From positions 18,106,001-18,170,000 of the forward strand of contig CM119371.1 in NCBI GenBank assembly GCA_051294905.1: a stretch of 64,000 nucleotides of DNA. Reading direction: 5' to 3'. Each line of letters begins with the position of its first letter. Position 1 is the first letter of the stretch. A program made the position numbers and the translations under genes. Positions 31,225 through 41,270 of this stretch are shown here, one piece after another. The stretch is from Botryllus schlosseri (Eukaryota). The notes under the pieces are model-generated. The model was not told where the DNA came from. It did not search any database and was given only the letters and a program-made list of their open reading frames with translations.

Positions 31225-31606
31225 CTATAAATAAAGGTGGTTTCGGCTTAATCTGGCCAAATATATGCAAGTGCTGGAAATGCACGTTGGCCTAATACTT
31301 TTCAATGATGCATAAAAATGGCATCGCCTTATTTTGCTTGCTTCATATAGGAGATTTTTCCTCTAGCGTCACGCGAGCGCCTGTATTACAGTTTTGTGCT
31401 TCAGTTTCAATTCAGTTTGTTATTCGATTTCATATTCTGCTGCGACGCCAACAGGCGAAAGCATGAGCTAAAGTCGTTTCCGTGTCACCGTCATGAATGC
31501 TATACGGTCATATTTCCATTAGGATACGATTCCAAGACATACACGACGTACAATGCGATAAGACACAATGCGATATTATGAACAGATAGGAGGATGCCGA
31601 ACGACC

Positions 31607-31871
31607 AGTTGCAGTTGCAGTTGCGGTTGCAGTTGCGTTCTCGGCCAAGAGCACGGTGTCACAGTTCTTTCTTCGGTGTTTGTCTCTATCGCTGCTCTTT
31701 ACATTTCTTGTAAGTGCGCTCTTCTCTTCCATCAGGTCTTTTACAGGTCTTTTTCTGTCGCCGTAGAAACAGCGATGCGGGGAAGAGGAACCCGAAATAA
31801 CCTCCGTCGTGGAATCGAACCCGGGCTGCTCGGGTGGCAGGTGCTCATCGCCACCACTGCGCTATCTCCCT
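31607..31871 (-). mobile_element. tRNA(Asp/Gly)-like pseudogene or SINE head with body and (gcaact)n tail
   Basis: Minus strand has A box tagcgcagtgg, loop cctgccac and B box ggttcgattcc. The acceptor stem does not pair. Ends in gcaact repeats at 31607-31636. Confidence 0.6.
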
Positions 31872-31964
31872 TAGGGCAATGTGAAGAGCGGTAAGCTCAA
31901 CAGATAAATAACTTGCTTTTGCAACTTTACACAGCAAGCGATCTTTCTCGCTCTCACATCAGCT

Positions 31965-32020
31965 TTCCAGTCGGTCTATGGGTCAAGATCCCTGGCTTTC
32001 ACCCAGGTGACCGAGGTTCG
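31965..32020 (+). tRNA. tRNA-Glu(TTC), 5' 56 nt of an interrupted gene
   Basis: ttccagt acceptor strand, D arm gtct/agat, perfect anticodon stem cctgg/ccagg around ct-TTC-ac. Breaks off at ggttcg. Confidence 0.85.
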
Positions 32021-32086
32021 GGCTACAACAACTATAAGCCGTCTTGAGAAACCGATTGAAATCTGGCACCCTAAGAAGCGATATAT

Positions 32087-35000
32087 GGGCCGTATGCACC
32101 AACATGTTTTGAACCCAAACTGGAGCTCAAACAGGGGTTCAGGAGATATTTCCAAAGCACCAACACCGAAACGTCAATGATCTAGCGTTCACTCGCGCCG
32201 AATTTGATCGAAAAGTAAACAACCGCGGGAGGTTGTTTAAAATGTAGTTCAGTGCTTTGGCATGGTTGTCGCTGATTGTGGTCTCCTGTTTCTCGCGACT
32301 GGTTGACTGTAAATTGGTTCATGTTGAAGACGTAGGTGCACAATTTGCTATCTTTCCGTAAATTAGCAGACTTTCTAAGCTGTAGGAATAGATTTTAGAT
32401 GTTTCCGAACCCAGTTTCACCAATGTGAGGCCGAATGGCTTACAGTTTACTGTTAGTTGATCGGTATACCGGTATTAGCGAGTATAGTGGTGAGCCAGGA
32501 AATCCATATGACTGCCTCAAGGTACCGGTAATGAAGATGCAATATTCTTGTCTTGCGCCTTGTAGGTTTGAATGAAAGACCTTCGGGTCAAAAATGAATG
32601 AAAATTATGACCAAGTCTGACGTCTGTATACAGTGTACAGTTTTTGAAGTACCCTGCGGGGTGCAATTGATGAGGCGTGTTCCCTATAAAGTTTGATATA
32701 TTTCACCATCATTGAAGCTATGCCAGTACAGCCGATATTACAGTAGATTGTCCTCATAGCCCAAATGACCGGGTTGGAATCCCGGTACGTTTAGCGTAAT
32801 ATATTTGGTGTACCACGACGGTTTTCAGCGTCACACCTGTGTATATTAGTAGAATCTTTGATGTGCACGAGACACCGATTCCATATTGGCGAAATGGAAA
32901 GCACGTAGCTGCCGGCTGCCAATGTCACGGCATGTCATGAATTGCTGAATCCTCTTTTATGTAACTGTTCCAAGTTTAGTATGAAGTATGAGTACGGAAT
33001 TTAGTAAAATGGACCCAAAACAAAACTGAAAGTTGATTTGCTTGCCAATGATGTAGGTTGTCGATTGAGTTATGGGAGCAGAAGCTGTATGGATTTGTAC
33101 CAGACGTCAGGAATCGTGGTCCTGTGATTTGCGCTCGCGGTCGACTGTAGATAGGTTGAGTTTGGAGCCGCATGTCTTGCAAATCTCTATATTATAGTAA
33201 TTTTACAGGTTTTAGGTTACTTGAGTGAAATATATACACGTCCTAACAACGATAAAGCGTTTCACTAATCTGGAGATTCTCGGATTAGGTCACAGTCAAT
33301 GAGAACCGGCATCATCAAGTGATGTCGGCCAAGAGACCATCCTAAAAAATGTGCATAATATGCAATAATATTATGTTGGAAGAAGACACATATACATATA
33401 CAAAAGAATCACCATGAAACTGAAGGTTATCGATTCCGATTTTGATGTACTTCGCAAAGAAGAGGGGACTAACTCTGGCTCGTATATCAATCGCTAGAGA
33501 TTTTGGCTGAATATCATTACAAAGTTATCTGTCTGAGTCAAATTCCCCAAAAAGTCAATGACTGCAAGAGTACTCTAGTGATAGGACCGAGAAATCAAAA
33601 AACCAGTCATGGAAATGTGCATAATATGACTGCTTTGGAATTGAATCATGTTGGGGGAAGGTAGCCTACATCAACATGGACCACATTCATCTCGATTTCT
33701 ACAATATCATCAACATGTAACTGAAGGTCATTCATTCTGATATTGATTTACTGCTCATGCTCAAAGAGGTGACAAACTGCCCTGGGTCGCACGTCAATTG
33801 CTAGAGATTTGGGCTGAATATCATTACAAAGTTTGCTGTCTGTGCCAAATTCCCCAAAAAGTCAATGACTACAAGAATACTCGAGTGGTAGGACCGTGAA
33901 ATCAAGAAACCAGTCATGGAAATGTGCAAATATGACCGATTTGGAATTGTACCATGTTGGGGGAATGTTGCCTACATCAACATGGACCACATTCATCTCA
34001 ATTTCTACAATAGCATCAACATGCAACTGAAGGTTGTCCATTCTGATATTGATGTAGCCTACTGTGCCTGTGTGATGATGGGACTAACTACCTTGGTCCG
34101 AAAGTCAATTGCTTTATATTTTGACTGACCGTCATTCCGAAGTTTGATGCTTGAGTCAACTCGCCAAAAATATGAATATACCACCAATCGAAATATAGTG
34201 AATGATTAGATCGACTCTGAAAAATGCTTCGGTTGGCACTATGATAAGGGATGTACAAATCTTACATATTCTATAACAAATAATCTTTTATCTCAAGCAA
34301 GGTGCTTACAATAATGCTTGAAAGTATGAATAGCATGGTATTTTATCTTGTCTAGAGCAGAAAATGTTAGGTGTGCACACTGTGCAGTACTCATGATTGA
34401 ATGAAAAGGTTTTTACTTGGATGAGTTTGTATTTGTAGACTATTTTCATTTCATGTGTTTGGCTATCATGATAATTTATTGTGCGATGATGAAGACCAGA
34501 CCCTGGAGATTCCTATTTACTTGACAAAAATGCAAATTGAAGGATTTCAGTTCTTTTCAAACTGTTCAAGTATACAACATGATCATGAACAATGAAATAA
34601 GTCTGTCGATTTGTGTTACTTTATCAGTTGAGAATGTTGAATATATGCTGTGCAGATATGGTAGTTGGATGTGATTGTCGGGCTATTGAGAGAACACAGT
34701 AATGGTGGAATCTCGGCAAGTTTTGCGCAATTGATTAGGGGAGCACTGATGATTCTCAAGGTGACAGTAAGGTACTCCCAAGAAATTAAGGAAGCACAGG
34801 ACACTCATTCCGTTCGGGTTAGATTCGAATGTGGGTAAAACAACTGTTTTACCCACATTAGAATCTAACCCGAAGGTGATATTCCACACTGTGAACACAC
34901 AGAACAAGTTGTGCAGGGTGAGGACAGTGGGTGAAAAGAGCCATTGGCCCTCGATTTTTACAGACAGTGTGGTGTCAAATATATATTCATAAGCCAGGAT

Positions 35001-35444
35001 ATTGTAAATTTTCGCCATGTCCTTCAATTTACCTCCTGGCAGGGCATCGCCAGTAAAGCCATGACTAAATTTTGGAACTTTAAAAGCATGATGGCAAAGC
35101 TAGCAATGGTATTTGATTCGAAAATGGTTACAGAAATATAGCCGGAGTTTTGTGAATGTGCTCAGCTGCTCATCATTGAAATGGACATCGCGCTAGCGAC
35201 CGCTGAGTTCCACAAAAACCTTGTTTTGTTTACCATTCGGTCGGCCTTGAGTAGCTTTTCAGGGTGCAAATTGAGCATCTATTTACTGAACGCTAGCTCG
35301 TCTCAATGATCATCAGTTCGTCTGAACGGCGTTTAAATATTGATGGTGCATCGCGAAAAATTTTGAACTGATGTTTCGTTTGAGTTATGTTCGAGCGAAC
35401 AGACGATCAGACTTGAACGTGTTCAATGTTGGTGCATACGGCCC
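32087..35444. mobile_element. PIF/Harbinger-type element, decayed
   Basis: Perfect 19-bp TIR gggccgtatgcaccaacat and 3-bp TSD tat/taa. Faint transposase remnants (GAID near 32660, RSTVDR near 33140). Confidence 0.85.
33350..34170 (+). repeat. Internal ~305-bp tandem duplication (about 2.5 copies) inside the Harbinger element
   Basis: catg.aactgaaggt anchor at ~33414, ~33714 and ~34020. Confidence 0.8.
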
Positions 35445-36939
35445 TAATCTGACAACGAAGGTGAGAGATATAAATTGCAATTTGTATAACAACTTCTTCC
35501 CTCGGCAGTGGCTACTCGTCCGGACCCGGACGAATAATTTTCTCAGGCTATTCGTCCGGCACCGTGTGACGTAGGCCCGTTACTATGGAGACTGTATGCG
35601 TTTTTGACAGGCTTCGGTTTTGTACATTATTTATTCGCCCTTCTGGTTACTGATTTCAATGGTTACTGTTACTGATTTGTATGCTCATCATTATAGCTCC
35701 GAGGGAAAGTTTACGCCATACTAATAATTGCAAATAGCTGTGTTGAAAGTACCAGAACTTGACGCCCACCTTTACCTTTACAAGAGATGTTTACCTACGC
35801 TTAATGTAGTGAGAACAAGTAGGATAGTGATTTGTAAGCTCATAATTGGAGCTCCGAGGGAATGTTTGCGCCATACGAAGAGCTCCAAAGTGCTATCGTT
35901 AAATAACCGGATGCAGTCAGAACACGAACGATTCGCTGAAATTCTTGCTGTCTCCACCTATTTCTGAACTCATGCAAGCGCCATTGACCTAACCAATTGT
36001 ACGTGAACTTGCACAGCTAAGACGGAATTGTCACCTCTGCTGTACTACGAGTACTCATACTTGATGTTGCTGTGCAGTAATGATTGGAATACCAACTGAG
36101 AGAGACTGTGCGTCTTTATTTTCATACAACAGAAATACAGAACAAATGGACAGCAGCAATGATCATACAGAAAACATGTGCATGCACAGTATTTGATGTC
36201 GGATAGAAGAGATCGATACAGCCATGGAAGTCAAGTGGTCTGATAAAACCCGCATGAAACAAGTATGCCTACATTGTCTCTGCATCATCTGACTGTAACA
36301 AATCGTAGTTGAAAAGATGAAGAAAAATTAAATGATAGCAAATGAATGAATGAATGAAGCAATGTCTGGGCAAAGTAGGGCAACAGTGTTAATACGACTA
36401 TCAGAGGTAATCAGGTAGGTCAAGAGTGTTAATAGGACTATCAGAGGTAATTAGGTATGGCAAGAGTGTTATTACGGTGACAAGAGGAAATGAGGTAATT
36501 TTTTTTATAATCTGCCATACAGCAGTTCACAGATGGTAATCCATTCAAAATGATCGGTCAGTCGATAGATCTCTTGGTTAGGTAACTATTAAATGGGCCC
36601 AAGTAGATATTTCCCTTCGATGAGGGTCCTGTATTAAGGGAGTGAACAACTTAAGCAGGTATGAAAAAGTCATCGAACACATACGACAAACTGTTCGAAA
36701 AATATTTGTGTACAACTTCAATGTTTATATGATCATTGGGTGTTAATCTGGTATGCATGCTGGTATTTCCGCACATTCCTTATTGCAGGTGACAGTAAAT
36801 GCTGTGCATACAATTTGCTGCTTTCAAGATATTCAAGCATTGATAGCGTGTTTTCACTGGGAACATCAATCATGAAAACTAAGTAGCCTACTTTCAATGT
36901 CAAAGTTGCCGCTACACATTTTTCTAACAGAGGCATCTG

Positions 36940-37667
36940 TTATTTTTTGCAGCGGCCACAGAACCATTTGTTTTGTTTAGGGTAAGTGTTTAGTCCAGCA
37001 CATAGAAGATGATCCCGGTTGAGACAGGAGTCGCAACGAATTGAATTGCTCTTTGTAAGTTGAAGGTCGCATACTCCACAGTACCAGTCTTTCTGACTAT
37101 ATTTACTTTGGAATGCCTTCATCACAGCAGCCCATCCATCATATGCGAAGTAATTCTTGATGTGGAGTATATTCACAGTCTCATCAAGGCAGCTGTTGGG
37201 GATGAGACGAGTGTCAGACGTGACAGACTTACTGCCCAATTTCTTTCCATACACTGCTTCATTAGTGTCAGATGGTGATACAAACCATGACAGCATCACT
37301 GTGAATAAGGCAGAAGTGAAATTTGCTGAAGTTCTGCATGAAATAAACTTACATCGGTCTCTGTCTTTAGGATGTATTTTTTTAAATGGAACTGGAGTGT
37401 CACATTTCTTCTTCTTCGGAAGGCCAACCACAGTTTGTTCCAAGCCTTTTGGGCGTCCTCTTTTTTTCAGTTTTGATGGCAGATGAATGTTGGAAAGATC
37501 TGAAACAGCAAGATCAGTTTTACTATAGTGTAGCAAGATAAAGTTTGGATTTATTTGACACCAACCCGTGAACTTGTCTGGTGTCATGGTGATTTTGCTA
37601 CAGTCTACGGACACTGCTGGGGTGCTATTTTCTGCATCACAGACTTCGGACACTGCTATAGCGCAAT
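36940..37667 (-). pseudogene. MULE transposase C-terminal exons with AT-hook and PHD finger
   Basis: KKRGRPKG and CGVC..CDSC..H..C..WFCGRC. Acceptor ccttcag at 37668. A 54-nt in-frame GT-AG intron lies at 37299-37352, and a probable 75-nt upstream exon at 37995-38069. Confidence 0.75.
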
Positions 37668-38317
37668 CTGAAGGTAAACAAACATGCAAACATCATGAAA
37701 TTGCAACATACATCTAAATCCAGTGAGTATAGTGACCTGGTCTGTGATTTAAGATAATTTCTTTATTGTAATCAAATTGCAACAAATATAGAGTTTATTG
37801 ATACTGATATTTTGTGAAAGCAGTCCTAATAACATGATGTCTGGTAGCTTAATTAACCTGAGATGTTGCTTGTGAATAGTGTATGTATGGTTGATTGATT
37901 GAATGAATGACTGATAGGCCTACATTACTTGGTGATGCAGTGTTGTCTGCAACTAATAGACTAGAATAACATTTCAAGTAAAATGCTAACTAACCTGATG
38001 TCTCAACAATCACCACCGTCTTTTCCTTCGCAGAGGCATGAGATCCATCTTTGTTCGAATCAACACAACCTACCAGAAACGGAGAGGATACCGAAATAAA
38101 TACGTGATACGTTACCCTGTATTTCAAGCGTAATGCACAGCATGTGTGGCAGTGCTGCTACTCGTAGTCCAGTAGCGAGCTAAAAAGGGGGCACTTCTTC
38201 GTTATTCTCCACACATCAGGAAGTGGTCTCCATGAAACCAATGCTTCCTATGAACATGTGAGAATTTATAAACGTTAAAATAAATTGATTTTCGCGTTGG
38301 GGTGGGGGATATTAGGG

Positions 38318-39360
38318 TCGGGTGGGTTAGGATTGGGGTGGCGGGATTGTGGTTGCATGTGTGGGGTTAGGATTGGGGGGTCAGCACGCGTGGGTTAGGA
38401 TTAGGGTGTCGTAAGATGAGGTTGCATGTGTGGGGTTGCGTATGCGTAAAATGGGGTTACAGTTGCATGTGTGGGGGTTGCGTATGCGGGGTTAGGATAG
38501 GGGTGGCACGGTTGCACGTGTGGGGTTGCGTATGCGTAAAATGAGGTGGTGGGGTTACAGTTGCATGTGTGGGGTTTGCATGTGTTGGGTTGCGTATGCG
38601 GGGTTAGGATAGGGGTGGCAGGGTTGCGGTTGCATGTGTGGGGTTAGAAGGGTGTCGTAAGATGAGGTTGCATGTGTGGGGTTAGGATTAGGGTGTCGTA
38701 AGATGAGGTGGTGGGGTTGCAGTTGCATGTGTGGGGTGGTGGGGGTGTGGTTGCAGTTGCGTGTGCGGGGTTGCGTATGCGTAAAATGAGGTGGTGGGGT
38801 TACAGTTGCATGTGTGGGGTTTGCATGTGTTGGGTTGCGTATGCGGGGTTAGGATAGGGGTGGCAGGGTTGCGGTTGCATGTGTGGGGTTAGAAGGGTGT
38901 CGTAGATGGGGTTAGGATTAGGGTGGGGGTGTGGTTGCAGTTGCGTGTGCGGGGTTAGGATAGCGGTTGCGGTTGCATGTGTGGGGTTAGGGATTGGGGT
39001 GTCAGCACGTGTGGGTTAGGATTAGGGTGTCGTAAGATGAGGTGGTGGGGTGTGCGGGGTTGCGTATGCGTAAAATGAGGTGGTGGGGTTACAGTTGCAT
39101 GTGTTGGGTTGCGTATGCGGGGTTAGGATAGGGGTGGCAGGGTTGCGGTTGCATGTGTGGGGTTAGAAGGGTGTCGTAAGATGAGGTTGCATGTGTGGGG
39201 TTAGGATTAGGGTGGGGGTGTGGTTGCAGTTGCGTGGTTAGGATAGGGGTTGCGGTTGCATGTGTGGGGTTAGGGATTGGGGTGTCAGCACGTGTGGGTT
39301 AGGATTAGGGTGTCGTAAGATGAGGTGGTGGGGTGTCATAGGAATGGGTTGGGGTTTAGG
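38318..39360 (+). repeat. G/T-rich complex tandem array with telomere-like GGGTTAGGATTAGGG variants
   Basis: Shuffled modules ggttgcatgtgtggggttag, ggttgcgtatgcg and gtgtcgtaagatgagg, with extreme G skew. Confidence 0.9.
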
Positions 39361-39478
39361 CTGAGGCTAATTTAACCCTAATTTCACGATACCAAGACTA
39401 CAAAATGCTCATGGGGAACATTGCTTGTTCATGTGGTTGTGGACCCGGTGGAAATTCCGTATCATACGTAACGCTTAC

Positions 39479-39760
39479 TTACCGTTGGTTAGGTCGTAAA
39501 CCCTTAGATAAGCTCTGAAATCTACGGCCGCCGTGGATGCAGTGAAAAGATATCTGGCCATACTTGAGCGCATCATTGAAATTTCGCTGAGTGGTTCGCT
39601 TTCTTACTGCATCGAGCGTACGTGAATCTCTCTTGTAGAGCTGGACGTAATTTTCTTTCTGGTATTTCTCCAAAGCACTTTTTAAGTCTTCATAAGAGGC
39701 GAACCTACTCTCGGAATCCATGCCGCAGTTACGGCCCACAGTTCCGGAAATCGCCGGCAC
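39479..39760 (-). pseudogene. MULE transposase exon 1, FAR1/ZSWIM3-like N-terminal DNA-binding domain
   Basis: FASYEDLKSALEKYQKENYVQLYKRDSRT...FHCIHGG...SKGLRPNQ, ending at donor CG/GTAAGT. Confidence 0.75.
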
Positions 39761-40885
39761 CCATTCTACAGTTGCGGCATGCTTACACCGGACGAATAGC
39801 CTGAGGAACTTTATTCGTCCGGGTCCGGACGAGTAGACACTTCCTCTTCCCTCACAGAAATACCTTGACGGAGGACTGGAGGAAGGAAAAGAAAATCTTC
39901 GATGGATTCAAAAGCCCATCGCAAGAAGTACAAGAACTAAGCCAGAAAGAAATCTACCAGATCGTAGTTTAACAGAAGACACATTCAGGAGGAAACCGCA
40001 TTGCTGACTGGAAATAAATATGGCTATACCAACCCAACATCAAATATCACACTGATAACCTGCAGCGTGAAATTTCATACCGCAATAACATTGAAAGTTA
40101 GTTTACAGGCTCCAGAAAAATCAACGCAGGTTGGGTACGAAGGTAAGACACCTACTTGAGTAACAGATGCAAATTCTGCCCCATACCTTCGCGGATTGTG
40201 CAACTTACAGAAACCTAGGATGTCGAGAATGACCTGCAAACCACTATCGACGATACACCCGACGAAATCATGCGCAACGTATACGACGGACCGCTTGCTC
40301 CGACCATAACAAAAACTTTTACGAACGTCAAATCCCTAGTGTGGGAATGGAAATATGCACTCGATATTCAAAACGAATACGGCCTAAATATTGACCAACG
40401 CATCAGCGATATAAGAAGTAAAACATACCGCAAAATTTACGCGGGACCAACCAACTGAACACTCCGATGATATGCGATAAATCGTATTTATCGTCCAACA
40501 AAACCCAACCATTTCACCCACAACCTCTCCCAAACACCCTAGCCTCCCATCCCATCCCATCCTCTGAATCCTTCCCCTTCCCATATCACTTCTCCGCCAA
40601 TAACCCTCCCCCTACCCGAATACCCAACACGCCTACGCAAACCATACATCAACGATCATAAACGATACAATTACGTCTACAATAACTTAATATGAACAAT
40701 AAACGCATACGAACGCCAGCTAGCGGCGATTTTTACTTCGCCTCTACTACAAATTCGACTTCGACAACGACTGCGATGAGATGAATCGATGGTGGGAACG
40801 AAAACGAACCAAACCGAATTTTATGCATTGATGATAATATTGCTATTTCATGTACATACAAAAATAAACATCACAAAAACCGTCG

Positions 40886-40901
40886 ATTCCCGGACTGGGA
40901 A
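40886..40901 (+). tRNA. tRNA-Glu(TTC), 3' 16 nt of the interrupted gene
   Basis: attcccggactgggaa completes the T loop. actggga pairs with ttccagt (one G.T pair). Joined length is 72 nt. Confidence 0.8.
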
Positions 40902-40903
40902 CG

Positions 40904-40910
40904 TTTTTTT
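40904..40910 (+). terminator. RNA polymerase III terminator (T7) of the interrupted tRNA-Glu gene
   Basis: Seven T residues 2 nt after the tRNA 3' end. Confidence 0.7.
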
Positions 40911-41010
40911 GTGGGGAAGTTGAAGGGACACTGCATAACTATAGCTTATTGAACTTTCCCCTATTGCATTTTAGCTGTAGTAGTCTACCGTTAAACCTCT
41001 TCCTCAACAC

Positions 41011-41270
41011 CAGGGGTCAGCAACCTTTTGCTCGTCACGGGCCAGAAGTCGAGCGTAAAACTCTTTGGCGGGCCGGAATTTTCATTATCGCTGTAATTCA
41101 CACTCACTTCAGTGCATCACGCTACAATGCTGTAATCTCAACCACACCAATCACAAAAAGAGCAACATATATGTATTCACACTTCAACAACATTGCATTA
41201 TTGCTACACTTGGTGCTGCTTTCTTTGTGACAGCTTTTTCAACATCTGGTAACCAGCCAGATGAAGCAAA
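41011..41270 (-). mobile_element. Diverged terminal fragment related to the 21459/29639 hAT family
   Basis: caggggtcagcaaccttttgctcgtcacgggcc aligns with 29639-29890. Confidence 0.65.

Follow-up and report, generated by a model that had tools for sequence, protein, structure and literature searches.

The window (the whole 64,000-nucleotide stretch of Botryllus schlosseri DNA that was analysed) contains a dead tRNA-Glu gene split by a 5′-truncated LINE of the L1/Tx1 group, and the family of this LINE seems to home to sites of the form ...GCCCGG(G)|TT(A/C)G in Pol III genes (the vertical bar marks the junction). Judged from sequence comparisons, this reading has a probability of roughly 80%. 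The LINEs concerned are a real target-preferring family, probably a new one among the LINEs already known to target RNA genes.

The Split tRNA-Glu(TTC) Gene

The interrupted locus, at window positions 31965-40910, is a dead tRNA-Glu(TTC) gene belonging to the minor tRNA-Glu(TTC) variant found in the genome. Its parts, and those of the DNA that lies between them, are the following.

31965..32020, + strand: tRNA-Glu(TTC) pseudogene, 5′ part, from the acceptor stem to the TTCG of the T-loop (alignment to an intact paralog; ARAGORN on the rejoined halves)
32017-32020, + strand: TTCG target duplication, 5′ copy, inside the tRNA 5′ part
32021..32086, + strand: LINE piece 1, with the 5′ truncation point; enters ORF2 near residue 872 of a full-length relative (paralog alignment through 32086)
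32087..35444, no strand assigned: nested DNA transposon 1, 3358 bp, TIR type (the paralog is an empty site)
35445..35503, + strand: LINE piece 2 (paralog alignment; blastx of the joined pieces)
35504..39844, no strand assigned: nested DNA transposon 2, 4341 bp, MULE-like (TIRs, TSD; the paralog is an empty site)
39845..40882, + strand: LINE piece 3, with the remainder of the ORF2 C-terminus (zf-RVT region), then the 3′ UTR and, as the terminus of the family, ...aaacatcacaaaaaccg
40883..40885, + strand: TTCG target duplication, 3′ copy, remnant tcg (the duplicated-insertion paralog has ...aaaaacggttcg|attccc at this position)
40886..40902, + strand: tRNA-Glu 3′ part, comprising the remaining T-loop, T stem, acceptor stem and discriminator
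40904..40910, + strand: T7 run, serving the tRNA gene as Pol III terminator

The rejoined halves are called by ARAGORN (default settings) as a tRNA-Glu(ttc) of 73 nt, while in the window as it stands no tRNA is found by ARAGORN, nor by Rfam at the gathering score. An intact paralog is located 92 kb away (L024, C1:18230312-18230384), with a tRNA-Glu ttc called by ARAGORN at L024 1529-1601. Positions 1501-1584 of this locus align to window 31936-32020 and positions 1585-1650 to window 40886-40946; the two alignments meet, so the halves abut exactly at L024 1584|1585, and the flanks are homologous. Compared with the intact minor variant, 9 of the 56 bases in the tRNA 5′ part are different, against 0 of 17 in the 3′ part. 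T-runs are also present at the position of the T7 in intact tRNA-Glu paralogs. The preliminary description had taken the two halves for a single tRNA-Glu(TTC) gene ending in a T7 terminator, and both points are confirmed by the ARAGORN call, by L024 as the empty site and by the run at 40904-40910.

A different view is that the element itself brought the tRNA pieces, either as a tRNA-derived 3′ end of the LINE or in a chimeric retrocopy formed when reverse transcription switched template, from LINE RNA to tRNA. Some loci (L003, L078/L079 and L082) do show a tRNA-like 3′ part with no 5′ part nearby, and these copies could be 3′ transductions instead of insertions. Against an origin within the element, the outer flanks in the window are both homologous to an intact tRNA-Glu gene with abutting halves, the tRNA 3′ part varies with the local gene (ACTGGGAA, TCTGGGAA, CCTGGGAA and the Gly-like CCAGTGCA), and in other copies 5S or unrelated DNA comes after the same LINE tail, all of which makes this view very unlikely. 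For the window, it is contradicted by the L024 empty-site alignment.

The Interrupting LINE and Its Nested Transposons

The 8.9 kb between the halves had been described as a single 5′-truncated LINE, but they turn out to be a composite of approximately 1.16 kb of LINE and two nested DNA transposons. LINE sequence is restricted to 32021-32086, 35445-35503 and 39845-40882, and these pieces, once joined, align by blastx in one frame with residues 872-1115 of P0001, the ORF2 protein of the full-length relative, at 68% identity and with stops; there is an 18-residue alignment gap, which covers the second half of the CCHC motif, lost in the window copy. The original insert of approximately 1.16 kb consisted of the last 244 ORF2 codons and the 3′ UTR. 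Over ref 1-819, piece 3 shares 78% identity with a copy in the 5S array. No long + strand ORF was found between the tRNA halves, and the window copy is a decayed fossil only.

The LINE is in sense orientation relative to the tRNA gene. At the 3′ junction it ends in ...ACGG and the tRNA resumes at T54 (GG|TTCGATTCC); the 5′ junction, GGTTCG|, sits 4 nt beyond the 3′ junction base, which implies a TTCG target duplication. The duplication had been noticed as tcg; its bases are in fact TTCG, of which the tcg of the window is a mutated remnant. The orientation, the ORF2 C-terminus and the aataaa-bearing tail were also correctly read at the outset, but not the A-rich end, given that the 3′ terminus of the family is fixed as ...TCACAAAAACGG, without a poly(A) or A-rich tail.

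The same insertion is found in duplicate 82 kb downstream (C1:18219536-18222345), with a 5′ truncation point and a junction (GGTTCG|GGCTACAACAA) identical to those of the window, and with a clear TTCG duplication (...AAAAACGG TTCG|ATTCC). This paralog aligns to window 31535-32086, 35445-35503, 39845-40033 and 40026-41012 only. The order of events was one LINE insertion, followed by duplication of the locus and then by the arrival of two DNA transposons in the window copy.

The first of these transposons has perfect 19-bp terminal inverted repeats (arms 32087-32105 and 35426-35444) and contains a 307-bp tandem repeat; copies that are 96-99% identical exist elsewhere. The second has imperfect 39-bp TIRs (90% complementary) and a 9-bp TSD, TCTTCCCTC (left 35495-35503, right 39845-39853), of which the paralog holds a single copy. 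MULEs generate TSDs of 9-11 bp, and by its long TIRs and its 9-bp TSD the element at 35504-39844 is assigned, provisionally, to the MULE-like type. It carries decayed - strand ORFs, with ZSWIM3_N at 39479-39907 (44.1 bits, cutoff 27.8) and PHD at 36940-37692 (23.2 bits, under the cutoff of 24); the domain search of these ORFs found no catalytic (MULE transposase) domain. A G-rich tandem array was located at 38452-39314 by tandem-repeat and GC-skew analysis.

Proteins and Classification of the Family

The full-length relative has two ORFs, ORF1 with a zf-CCHC and ORF2 (P0001, 1115 aa) with Exo_endo_phos at residues 31-240 (51.6 bits) and RVT_1 at residues 514-729 (104.1 bits). The zf-RVT match of P0001 reaches 21.2 bits, under the cutoff of 27.5, and a C-x2-C-x8-H-x4-C string is visible. 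The nearest solved relative is human L1 ORF2p (E 3e-71, 243 bits), compared with 3.8e-19 (71 bits) for R2, and the endonuclease part is closest to L1 EN and its LR1/LTX chimeras in the PDB, where the matches at E <= 0.01 include no R1Bm or TRAS1 endonuclease chain. Homolog and Atlas searches matched unnamed LINE proteins only. On the strength of its domains and nearest solved relative, the family is considered an AP-endonuclease LINE of the L1/Tx1 group, in line, at group level, with the L1/Tx1-like assignment made earlier. Target-specific insertion, a trait of the Tx1 clade, was found here at constant positions in 5S genes and tRNA T-loops. Copies of the family range from 38 bp to approximately 5.3 kb, with the ...ACGG end in common and a variable 5′ truncation, and their TSDs are TTCG, TTAGTAC or none.

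Insertions in tRNA Genes

At least six independent insertions of the family are found at one position, ...ACGG|TTCGATTCC, of different tRNA-Glu genes, and their 5′ truncation points differ. Those that retain both tRNA parts are the window, L049/L067, L112, L113, L114 and the units of an array on C3. The C4 copy at L049/L067 is a 1.6-kb fragment whose 5′ junction, GGTTCG|CACATATG..., reads AHMLKPVIKILGLYHGE of ORF2, and whose end is ...AAAAACGG TTCG|ATTCCCGGTCTGGGAA. The tail measures approximately 75 bp in L113 (C16), 62 bp in L114 (C5) and 105 bp in L112 (C4:1365541), where the tRNA is partly deleted; in the C3 units a Glu(CTC)-like pseudogene is joined to a 38-bp LINE tail and amplified 18-fold in tandem. 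Gly-like and SINE-like T-loops are also among the targets, and one copy (L104) ends 1-2 nt ahead of an intact tRNA-Ser.

A search for the junction pattern fetched 20 places, of which 17 have the LINE tail, all running into T-loop-like sequence, and the other three are chance matches without the tail; this set was chosen for the junction itself, and 17/20 is not a frequency. For most copies of the family it is the 3′ side of the target that was seen, not the upstream side.

It could be argued that a non-specific LINE landed by chance in a 72-bp tRNA gene, and the unrelated flanks of many family copies would agree with this. However, the independent tRNA-Glu insertions share base and orientation while differing in truncation point, and one 5S base is hit repeatedly by the family. 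The genome contains approximately 150 tRNA-Glu genes (152 pattern matches, control 0), and counting one base and one strand in each, over 2 x 495.5 Mb, the expectation is approximately 1.5e-7 per insertion, against at least six events. Chance is therefore an exceedingly improbable explanation. The same had been supposed for the window from the size of the target, and the case is now made by at least six tRNA-Glu genes hit at the same base, with the tRNA 5′ part at the other junction.

Insertions in 5S rRNA Genes

Among the matches listed, five of the six open-ORF2 copies that belong to the closest young sublineage (1112-1115 aa, 89% identity to P0001) are inside 5S rRNA gene sequence, as seen from their 3′ flanks. 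The junction falls between nt 71 and 72 of the 119-nt gene (GGGCCCGG|TTAGTAC). The 5S array at C9:3506461-3568482, with a unit of 1041 bp, is broken up by same-strand LINE copies, one of which is full length (approximately 5.3 kb), with junctions ...CCCGGTTAGTAC|GAGAG and ...AAAAACGG|TTAGTAC and with TTAGTAC as its TSD. A 5′-truncated copy in 5S has the junction ...GGGCCCGG| followed by ORF1 sequence, and 5S variants on C1 and C11 contain further copies.

Copies within 5S genes share 97% identity with the C4 tRNA-Glu copy, and the site in the tRNA-Glu T arm, GGCCCGGG|TTCG, resembles the 5S site. This resemblance is suggestive but not proof of a common mode of recognition, because the alignment of the two sites around the nick has no more than 8 matches in 14 positions. 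Where the upstream side could be read, in three targets, GCC(C)GG(G)|T is common to all.

Degree of Specificity

The specificity of the family is not absolute. Among 13 exact AAAAATCACAAAAACGG (A-type) tails, three continue as TTCGAT... and ten are outside T-loops, and 15 of 16 exact B-type tails have unrelated flanks. The C4 copy has at least 41 body matches, and of 20 3′ flanks fetched, nine are 5S, two are one SINE site, one adjoins tRNA-Ser and eight are other sequence. Sister sublineages, with tails ...CACTCAAAAGG and ...CACTAAAACGG, have mostly unrelated flanks, among them those of the B-type tails and the eight other flanks just mentioned, and have diverged in ORF2 by only about 11%. 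All these family counts, drawn from searches that scored 40-47 candidates each, are lower bounds rather than a census. Short motifs cannot account for the targeting, because they are too common: CGGTT occurs 91 times in the 64-kb window, and CGGTT[AC]G three times.

The proposal that the family targets the T-loop of tRNA-Glu genes holds, then, as far as the recurrent hits at one base are concerned, but not as an exclusive preference for tRNA-Glu, given that 5S and Gly-like and SINE-like T-loops are hit too. The 3′ flanks of other copies are tRNA halves in several cases and unrelated DNA in many, and for the latter part of the family the proposal fails.

How the Site May Be Recognised

By comparison of its copies, the family homes to the GC-rich sequence ...GCCCGG(G)|TT(A/C)G in Pol III genes, at nt 71/72 of 5S and at nt 53/54 of the T arms of tRNA-Glu and Gly-like genes. 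The ORF2 endonuclease would nick the bottom strand opposite the target site, reverse transcription would be primed at the nick from the non-polyadenylated end of the RNA, and the top-strand cut would follow 0-7 nt downstream. The T arm of tRNA-Glu may be hit owing to its resemblance to the 5S site. Old copies would persist in dispersed tRNA genes and have probably been purged from the homogenised 5S array.

Other proposals place the targeting outside sequence recognition by the endonuclease: either in base-pairing by read-through transcripts, where LINE RNA from a 5S- or tRNA-seated copy bears downstream 5S or tRNA sequence, or in tethering to the Pol III machinery (TFIIIC/TFIIIA/TFIIIB). The clear targets are all Pol III genes or tRNA-like SINE heads, and the sites fall within internal control regions or border on them (the B box, GGTTCGANTCC, in tRNA and the neighbourhood of box C in 5S). 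Furthermore, L098, a dispersed copy, runs on into TTAGTA as in 5S before it diverges, which fits a short carried-over 5S tag; the L104 copy stops just before its tRNA-Ser; and R2-type elements are said to gain specificity from being co-transcribed with their target (PMC4494074). On the other hand, tethering elements such as TRE5-A insert near their targets and not at a fixed internal base (PMC3706591), which argues against tethering. Pairing is at odds with the C4 tRNA-Glu copy, so similar to the 5S copies, where a 5S read-through tag would not pair, and the GCC(C)GG(G)|T common to the three targets fits DNA recognition. Pairing or tethering is thus unlikely, although less so than a chance landing or an element-borne tRNA, and recognition of the DNA by the endonuclease is the preferred reading.

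Comparison With Known Systems

R1 and R2 settle at one constant position in the repeated 28S rDNA, use target-primed reverse transcription, are frequently 5′-truncated and do not rely on poly(A). The present family follows the same strategy, but it differs in clade and target, and for P0001 L1 ORF2p is a far stronger match than R2 proteins are.

By description, the closest parallel in 5S genes is Mutsu of zebrafish (Tx1 clade; Repbase L1-2_DR and others), which is also a two-ORF LINE with endonuclease and RT (approximately 5.5 kb); it inserts into 5S genes at one set position and breaks up their tandem arrays (PMC5340908). In both families the intact-ORF copies are in the 5S array. The Mutsu site is placed approximately 20 nt from the 5S 5′ end, and copies were searched for there by a poly(A) stretch at the 3′ end (PMC5340908), whereas here the site is at nt 71/72 and the end is ...ACGG without poly(A). 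The family described here also has a second target, the tRNA T-loops; the word "tRNA" has 0 occurrences in PMC5340908.

Dewa, Keno, Kibi and Koshi are likewise APE-type LINEs of the L1/Tx1 group with repeated targets that include small RNA gene loci (PMC4494074, PMC3706591). Nevertheless, Dewa targets the tRNA-Leu spacer (PMC3706591) and not the inside of the tRNA-Glu T-loop, the target of Keno is U2 and those of Kibi and Koshi are microsatellites. Non-LTR retrotransposons specific for tRNA genes, tRNA-Glu included, are described for the NeSL clade: LIN25_SM in tRNA-Glu, LIN15_SM in tRNA-Arg and NeSL-1_TV in tRNA-Pro (PMC4640811). Their endonuclease is restriction-like, while here it is of the AP type (Exo_endo_phos). 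The use of tRNA or small RNA genes as a safe haven is shared, according to PMC3706591, with Dada and with TRE5-A of Dictyostelium; Dada, however, is a DDE-type DNA transposon, and TRE5-A goes near tRNA genes by protein tethering (PMC3706591).

Implications

A further reading, tentative and somewhat less probable than its opposite, is that this is a living APE-type lineage (open ORF2, sense-strand RNA reads) with one core, GCCCGG(G)|TT(A/C)G, and two Pol III targets, 5S at nt 71/72 and tRNA-Glu/Gly at nt 53/54. If true, the sister sublineages at unrelated sites would offer a natural series in which to follow how the specificity of AP-endonuclease LINEs is gained, relaxed and switched. In that case, the very short LINE tails in T-loops would rebuild the B box (CGG plus TTCGATTCC) and keep the A box and the terminator in place; chimeras of this kind, with a tRNA head and a LINE tail driven by Pol III, would constitute a direct route to new SINEs, and the 18-fold tandem unit on C3 would be one such chimera already amplified.

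The split tRNA-Glu gene and its empty site

The source assembly is eukaryotic and comprises 495.5 Mb; in it the window occupies C1:18106001-18170000. Reading of the window identified two parts of one tRNA gene:

31965-32020, + strand, tRNA-Glu-like 5' part, ending ...GAGGTTCG
40886-40902, + strand, tRNA-Glu 3' part, reading ATTCCCGGACTGGGAAC, then T7

In the uninterrupted window no tRNA is found by ARAGORN, and none by Rfam at gathering score; once the halves are rejoined by coordinates, ARAGORN at default thresholds calls a tRNA-Glu(ttc) of 73 nt. The split gene of the preliminary description is thereby confirmed. Intact tRNA-Glu genes are numerous in the genome: the major TTC variant has the acceptor TCCCAGA...TCTGGGA, the minor TTC variant, to which the split gene belongs, has TCCCAGT...ACTGGGA, and CTC genes are also present. 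An intact gene of the minor variant (locus L024), homologous in its flanks too, lies 92 kb downstream of the window's gene. Window 31936-32020 aligns to positions 1501-1584 of this locus and window 40886-40946 to positions 1585-1650, and since the two alignments meet at 1584/1585, with the halves exactly abutting, L024 represents the empty site. The split gene, which differs from the intact variant at 9 of 56 positions in its 5' part and at 0 of 17 in its 3' part, is a decayed pseudogene.

Two other tRNA-like sequences are found nearby. One of them, roughly 100 bp upstream from the split gene (window 31790-31875, - strand), is called neither by ARAGORN nor by Rfam; by eye it has a Gly(GCC)-like anticodon region, and its T arm is intact (...GCCCGGGTTCGATTCC...). 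The LINE's preferred motif is present, yet it carries no insertion. The other (L027, C1:18095015-18095062, a short way upstream of the window) is a minor-variant tRNA-Glu copy in which a short deletion lies between the anticodon stem and the T stem. ARAGORN calls it tRNA-Gln(ctg), but it probably belongs, as a pseudogene, to the same local gene family.

Structure of the insert

The 8.9 kb between the halves had been described as a single 5'-truncated LINE. There is no long + strand ORF between them, and the split locus has a second copy 82 kb downstream (C1:18219536-18222345), with an identical 5' junction (GGTTCG/GGCTACAACAA, the slash marking the junction here and below), which aligns only to window 31535-32086, 35445-35503, 39845-40033 and 40026-41012. 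This alignment pattern and the shared junction show a single insertion followed by segmental duplication, and the stretches that are absent from the alignment are later arrivals:

32087-35444, DNA transposon 1, perfect 19-bp terminal inverted repeats (TIRs)
35504-39844, DNA transposon 2, MULE-like, 39-bp TIRs and 9-bp target site duplication (TSD) TCTTCCCTC

Copies of the first element that are 96-99% identical exist elsewhere in the genome; no TSD is discernible around it, the flanks being a TATATA run. The TSD of the second is single in the second split copy, and this element holds a ZSWIM3_N domain in a decayed - strand ORF. The lack of a long + strand ORF, the TIRs, the TSD and the empty sites of the paralog rule out one LINE: two DNA transposons are nested within it. 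The MULE-like element also contains a G-rich tandem array (window 38452-39314, periods 15-245 bp), which gives the window's strongest GC skew, 0.41 (38001-40000).

Without the two transposons 1157 bp are left, and these align in a single frame with ORF2 residues 872-1115 of a full-length relative (68% identity, five stops, an 18-residue gap), which bears out the zf-RVT-like C-terminus noticed at the outset; a 3' UTR of about 450 bp comes after the ORF2 part. A poly(A) tail, or the A-rich end of the preliminary description, is ruled out, since the copies end at a fixed terminus without poly(A), ...TGAATAAA(A/C)ATCAC(A/T)(A/C)AAA(A/C)GG. The window insert is an old, decayed, triple-nested fossil without present function.

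The two copies of the split locus (31535-41012 and C1:18219536-18222345) diverge unevenly: identity is 98% over 121 bp around the tRNA 5' part, 94-97% in the short LINE pieces, 85% in the LINE 3' kb and flank, and about 80% in the upstream flank, which may reflect gene conversion or indel-rich stretches.

Identity of the LINE family

The full-length relative (L065, on C10) encodes an ORF1 of 332 aa with a CCHC knuckle and an ORF2 of 1115 aa (P0001) with Exo_endo_phos and RVT_1 domains, zf-RVT being below threshold. The best solved relative of this ORF2 is human L1 ORF2p (E 3e-71), R2 proteins scoring 4e-19 or worse, and its endonuclease part is nearest to L1 EN among solved structures. On these similarities we place the family in the L1/Tx1 group; a homolog search and an Atlas search for a clade beyond 'L1 group' returned unnamed LINE proteins only. 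Other LINE families with an open ORF2 of about 1100 aa, 45-56% identical in protein to this one, are also present (e.g., C1:5174396, C4:11102275, C10:856223).

Recurrent insertion at one base of tRNA-Glu genes

Further tRNA-Glu genes have the family tail attached at this very base, with the tRNA 5' part seen at the other junction.

Table. Family insertions in tRNA-Glu genes outside the window
L049/L067, C4: 1.6-kb LINE fragment; 5' junction GGTTCG/CACATATG..., translating to ...AHMLKPVIKILGLYHGE of ORF2; 3' end AAAAACGG TTCG/ATTCCCGGTCTGGGAA
L113, C16: tail of ~75 bp; both tRNA parts there
L114, C5: tail of ~62 bp, too short for a BLAST match to the LINE reference, junctions read by eye; both tRNA parts there
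L112, C4:1365541: tail of ~105 bp; tRNA deleted from anticodon arm to T stem
C3 array units, G000:C3:34422000-34468400: 38-bp tail in the T-loop of a Glu(CTC)-like pseudogene; 18 junctions

In the C3 tandem array (units of 1338 and 1751 bp) the tail-bearing pseudogene has been amplified and is interleaved with intact tRNA-Glu TTC and CTC genes. The genes, truncation points and tail subtypes all differ, and with the window included the independent events number at least six.

Further tails run into Gly-like 3' parts (L078/L079, ATTCCCGGCCAGTGCA), into other tRNA-like ends with T-runs (L003, L082) and into two repeated SINE-like flanks that begin like a T-loop (L071/L072/L084, and L077/L006); they come from a search pattern that itself contains the T-loop, and so do not give a frequency. 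No tRNA 5' part is visible upstream of the Gly-like copy L115. Chance matches without a LINE tail made up 3 of the 20 places fetched from the junction-pattern search. In a sample unselected for flanks, 3 of 13 exact AAAAATCACAAAAACGG tails continue TTCGAT.... The short tail pattern is noisy (1910 matches vs 1337 in the reversed control), and only rows with 0 and 1 mismatch were used; the search with the tRNA-Glu 5' half gave 38 matches and missed known copies, the C16 and C3 units among them, so that it is no census.

The genome holds about 150 tRNA-Glu genes (152 pattern matches vs 0 in the reversed control), and the chance of a random insertion at the tRNA-Glu base, taking one base and one strand per gene, is about 1.5e-7 by our own arithmetic. 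Nor can short motifs explain the concentration, since CGGTT (91 occurrences in the 64-kb window) and CGGTT[AC]G (3 occurrences) are far too common. The idea that short-tail tRNA-Glu units give birth to SINEs finds no support here: among the 100 listed of the 152 matches, there are no dispersed retrocopies with a tRNA-Glu head and a LINE tail beyond the three known interrupted genes.

Insertion into 5S rRNA genes

The main target, unexpectedly, is the 5S rRNA gene. With the C4 fragment as query, many copies are found that are 92-97% identical, and with ORF2 as query, six copies with open frames of 1112-1115 aa and 89% identity to P0001. The 3' flanks of 20 body matches were fetched: nine are the 3' part of 5S rRNA (...AAAACGG/TTAGTACTTGCATGGGTGACCGGCTGGGAATACCGGGTG...GTAGGC...TTTT), two share a single site in a SINE-like repeat (CGG/TCATACCAAA) and eight are unrelated. 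The remaining match (L104, C1:36066021-36066171) ends 1-2 nt before the start of an intact tRNA-Ser(AGA), an association with a Pol III gene in another geometry. Flanks of 5S type are carried by 5/6 of the copies with an open ORF2. The Rfam 5S model locates a tandem 5S array with a 1041-bp unit at C9:3506461-3568482 (47/47 scored matches), and this array is interrupted by LINE copies on the same strand:

C9 5S array, LINE copy of ~5.3 kb: junctions ...GGGCCCGGTTAGTAC/GAGAGAGG and ...AAAAACGG/TTAGTACTTG, TSD TTAGTAC
C9 5S array, 5'-truncated LINE copy: 5' junction ...GGGCCCGG/, then ORF1 sequence, without TSD

In the 119-nt gene, the 3' junction separates nt 71 from nt 72.

A cluster of at least six LINE copies, several with an open ORF2, occupies C1:18851000-18976000, some 0.7-0.8 Mb away from the window. 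All of them are joined to a variant-type 5S 3' part (...GGGTGTAGTAGGCGGCTTTT). Since Rfam's scored 5S matches all fall on C9, a second 5S locus, variant or degenerate, may exist here. Other LINE tails, of the ...CACAAAAACGG type, continue into two kinds of repeated flank (L116-L119 at C1:5915883, C1:6252709, C3:32980318 and C3:33305813; L120-L122 at C5:20957723, C7:22697178 and C8:14776381). Both kinds start with TTACAAC (cf. 5S TTAGTAC), one going directly into a T5 run, and they represent either additional targets of a repeated kind or composite repeats of which the tail is a part.

Target choice and a possible mechanism

The upstream sides are readable for three targets, 5S (GGGCCCGG/TTAG), tRNA-Glu (GGCCCGGG/TTCG) and the SINE-like repeat (GGCCGGG/TCAT), which have GCC(C)GG(G)/T in common; in our alignment, 8 of the 14 positions flanking the nick are the same in the 5S and tRNA-Glu sites. 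From this we infer that the T arm of tRNA-Glu and tRNA-Gly may serve as a look-alike of the 5S site. Specificity could instead come from pairing of read-through RNA or from tethering by Pol III factors, explanations that we regard, even taken together, as improbable. The C4 tRNA-Glu copy shares 97% identity with copies within 5S genes, which indicates that the same young sublineage uses both targets. In sister sublineages, whose tails are ...CACTCAAAAGG and ...CACTAAAACGG, the flanks are mostly unrelated (15/16 exact tails in the sample unselected for flanks, with the same picture in other sets of fetched flanks), so that either specificity varies within the family or it amounts to a preference. 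The idea of a LINE that targets tRNA-Glu T-loops was right in kind, as the recurrent insertions at the same base attest, but too narrow, since 5S genes are also hit.

The insertions are in sense orientation, with a fixed 3' junction and variable 5' truncation; their 5' junctions lie 0-7 nt downstream or are accompanied by deletions, and CGG+TTCGATTCC is rebuilt by the 3' junction. Insertion would start with a nick made by the ORF2 endonuclease in the bottom strand, facing the site; from the ...ACGG end of the RNA, target-primed reverse transcription would then proceed, and second-strand cleavage would follow a few bases further downstream.

Expression

Reads of one single-cell RNA run were mapped to a 1251-bp stretch made of the LINE 3' end and a 5S part. 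At a likeness of at least 95%, 314 reads map there, almost all in one direction (first_mate_on-), which the mapping tool's guidance for stranded libraries equates with RNA from the LINE sense strand. Depth is highest in bins 1009-1134 (88-114), roughly 100-200 nt short of the end of the LINE, and variant letters at 25-35% of reads indicate that several copies contribute. Members of the family are transcribed; the reads neither tell which copies these are nor show that they transpose.

Relation to known elements and significance

Among retroelements, target-specific LINEs are rare natural cases in which DNA is written into multicopy sites where it does no harm, and R2 is their main model.

According to the excerpts available of the publications cited here, target-specific LINEs with an AP endonuclease (APE) belong to the Tx1 and R1 clades (PMC4640811), with Mutsu inserting into 5S, Keno into U2 and Dewa into the tRNA-Leu spacer (PMC3706591), whereas the LINEs specific for tRNA-Pro, tRNA-Arg and tRNA-Glu belong to the restriction-endonuclease NeSL clade (PMC4640811). 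The tRNA-associated LINEs of these excerpts thus differ from the present family in endonuclease type or in inserting into spacers (PMC4640811, PMC3706591). Mutsu, listed in the table of a 2024 review as the sequence-defined LINE 'into 5S' (PMC10946416), is the one 5S-specific APE-type LINE of the L1/Tx1 group in the literature searched; its insertion site in zebrafish is about 20 nt into the 5S gene, counted from the 5' end (PMC5340908), and differs from nt 71/72. In that same body of literature there is no APE-type LINE inside tRNA T-loops or at nt 71/72 of 5S.

The family is a member of the known class of LINEs that target RNA genes, with a dual preference for 5S and the T-loop; that it is undescribed, as first proposed, is unproven. 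This dual preference is worth a specialist's look, the window's own result being more modest. What the genome adds is a new 5S site, a second recurrent site within tRNA T-loops, copies with open ORFs and close relatives that insert elsewhere; with these, one can test on which endonuclease residues or RNA features target choice depends, and why tRNA-Glu genes are hit.
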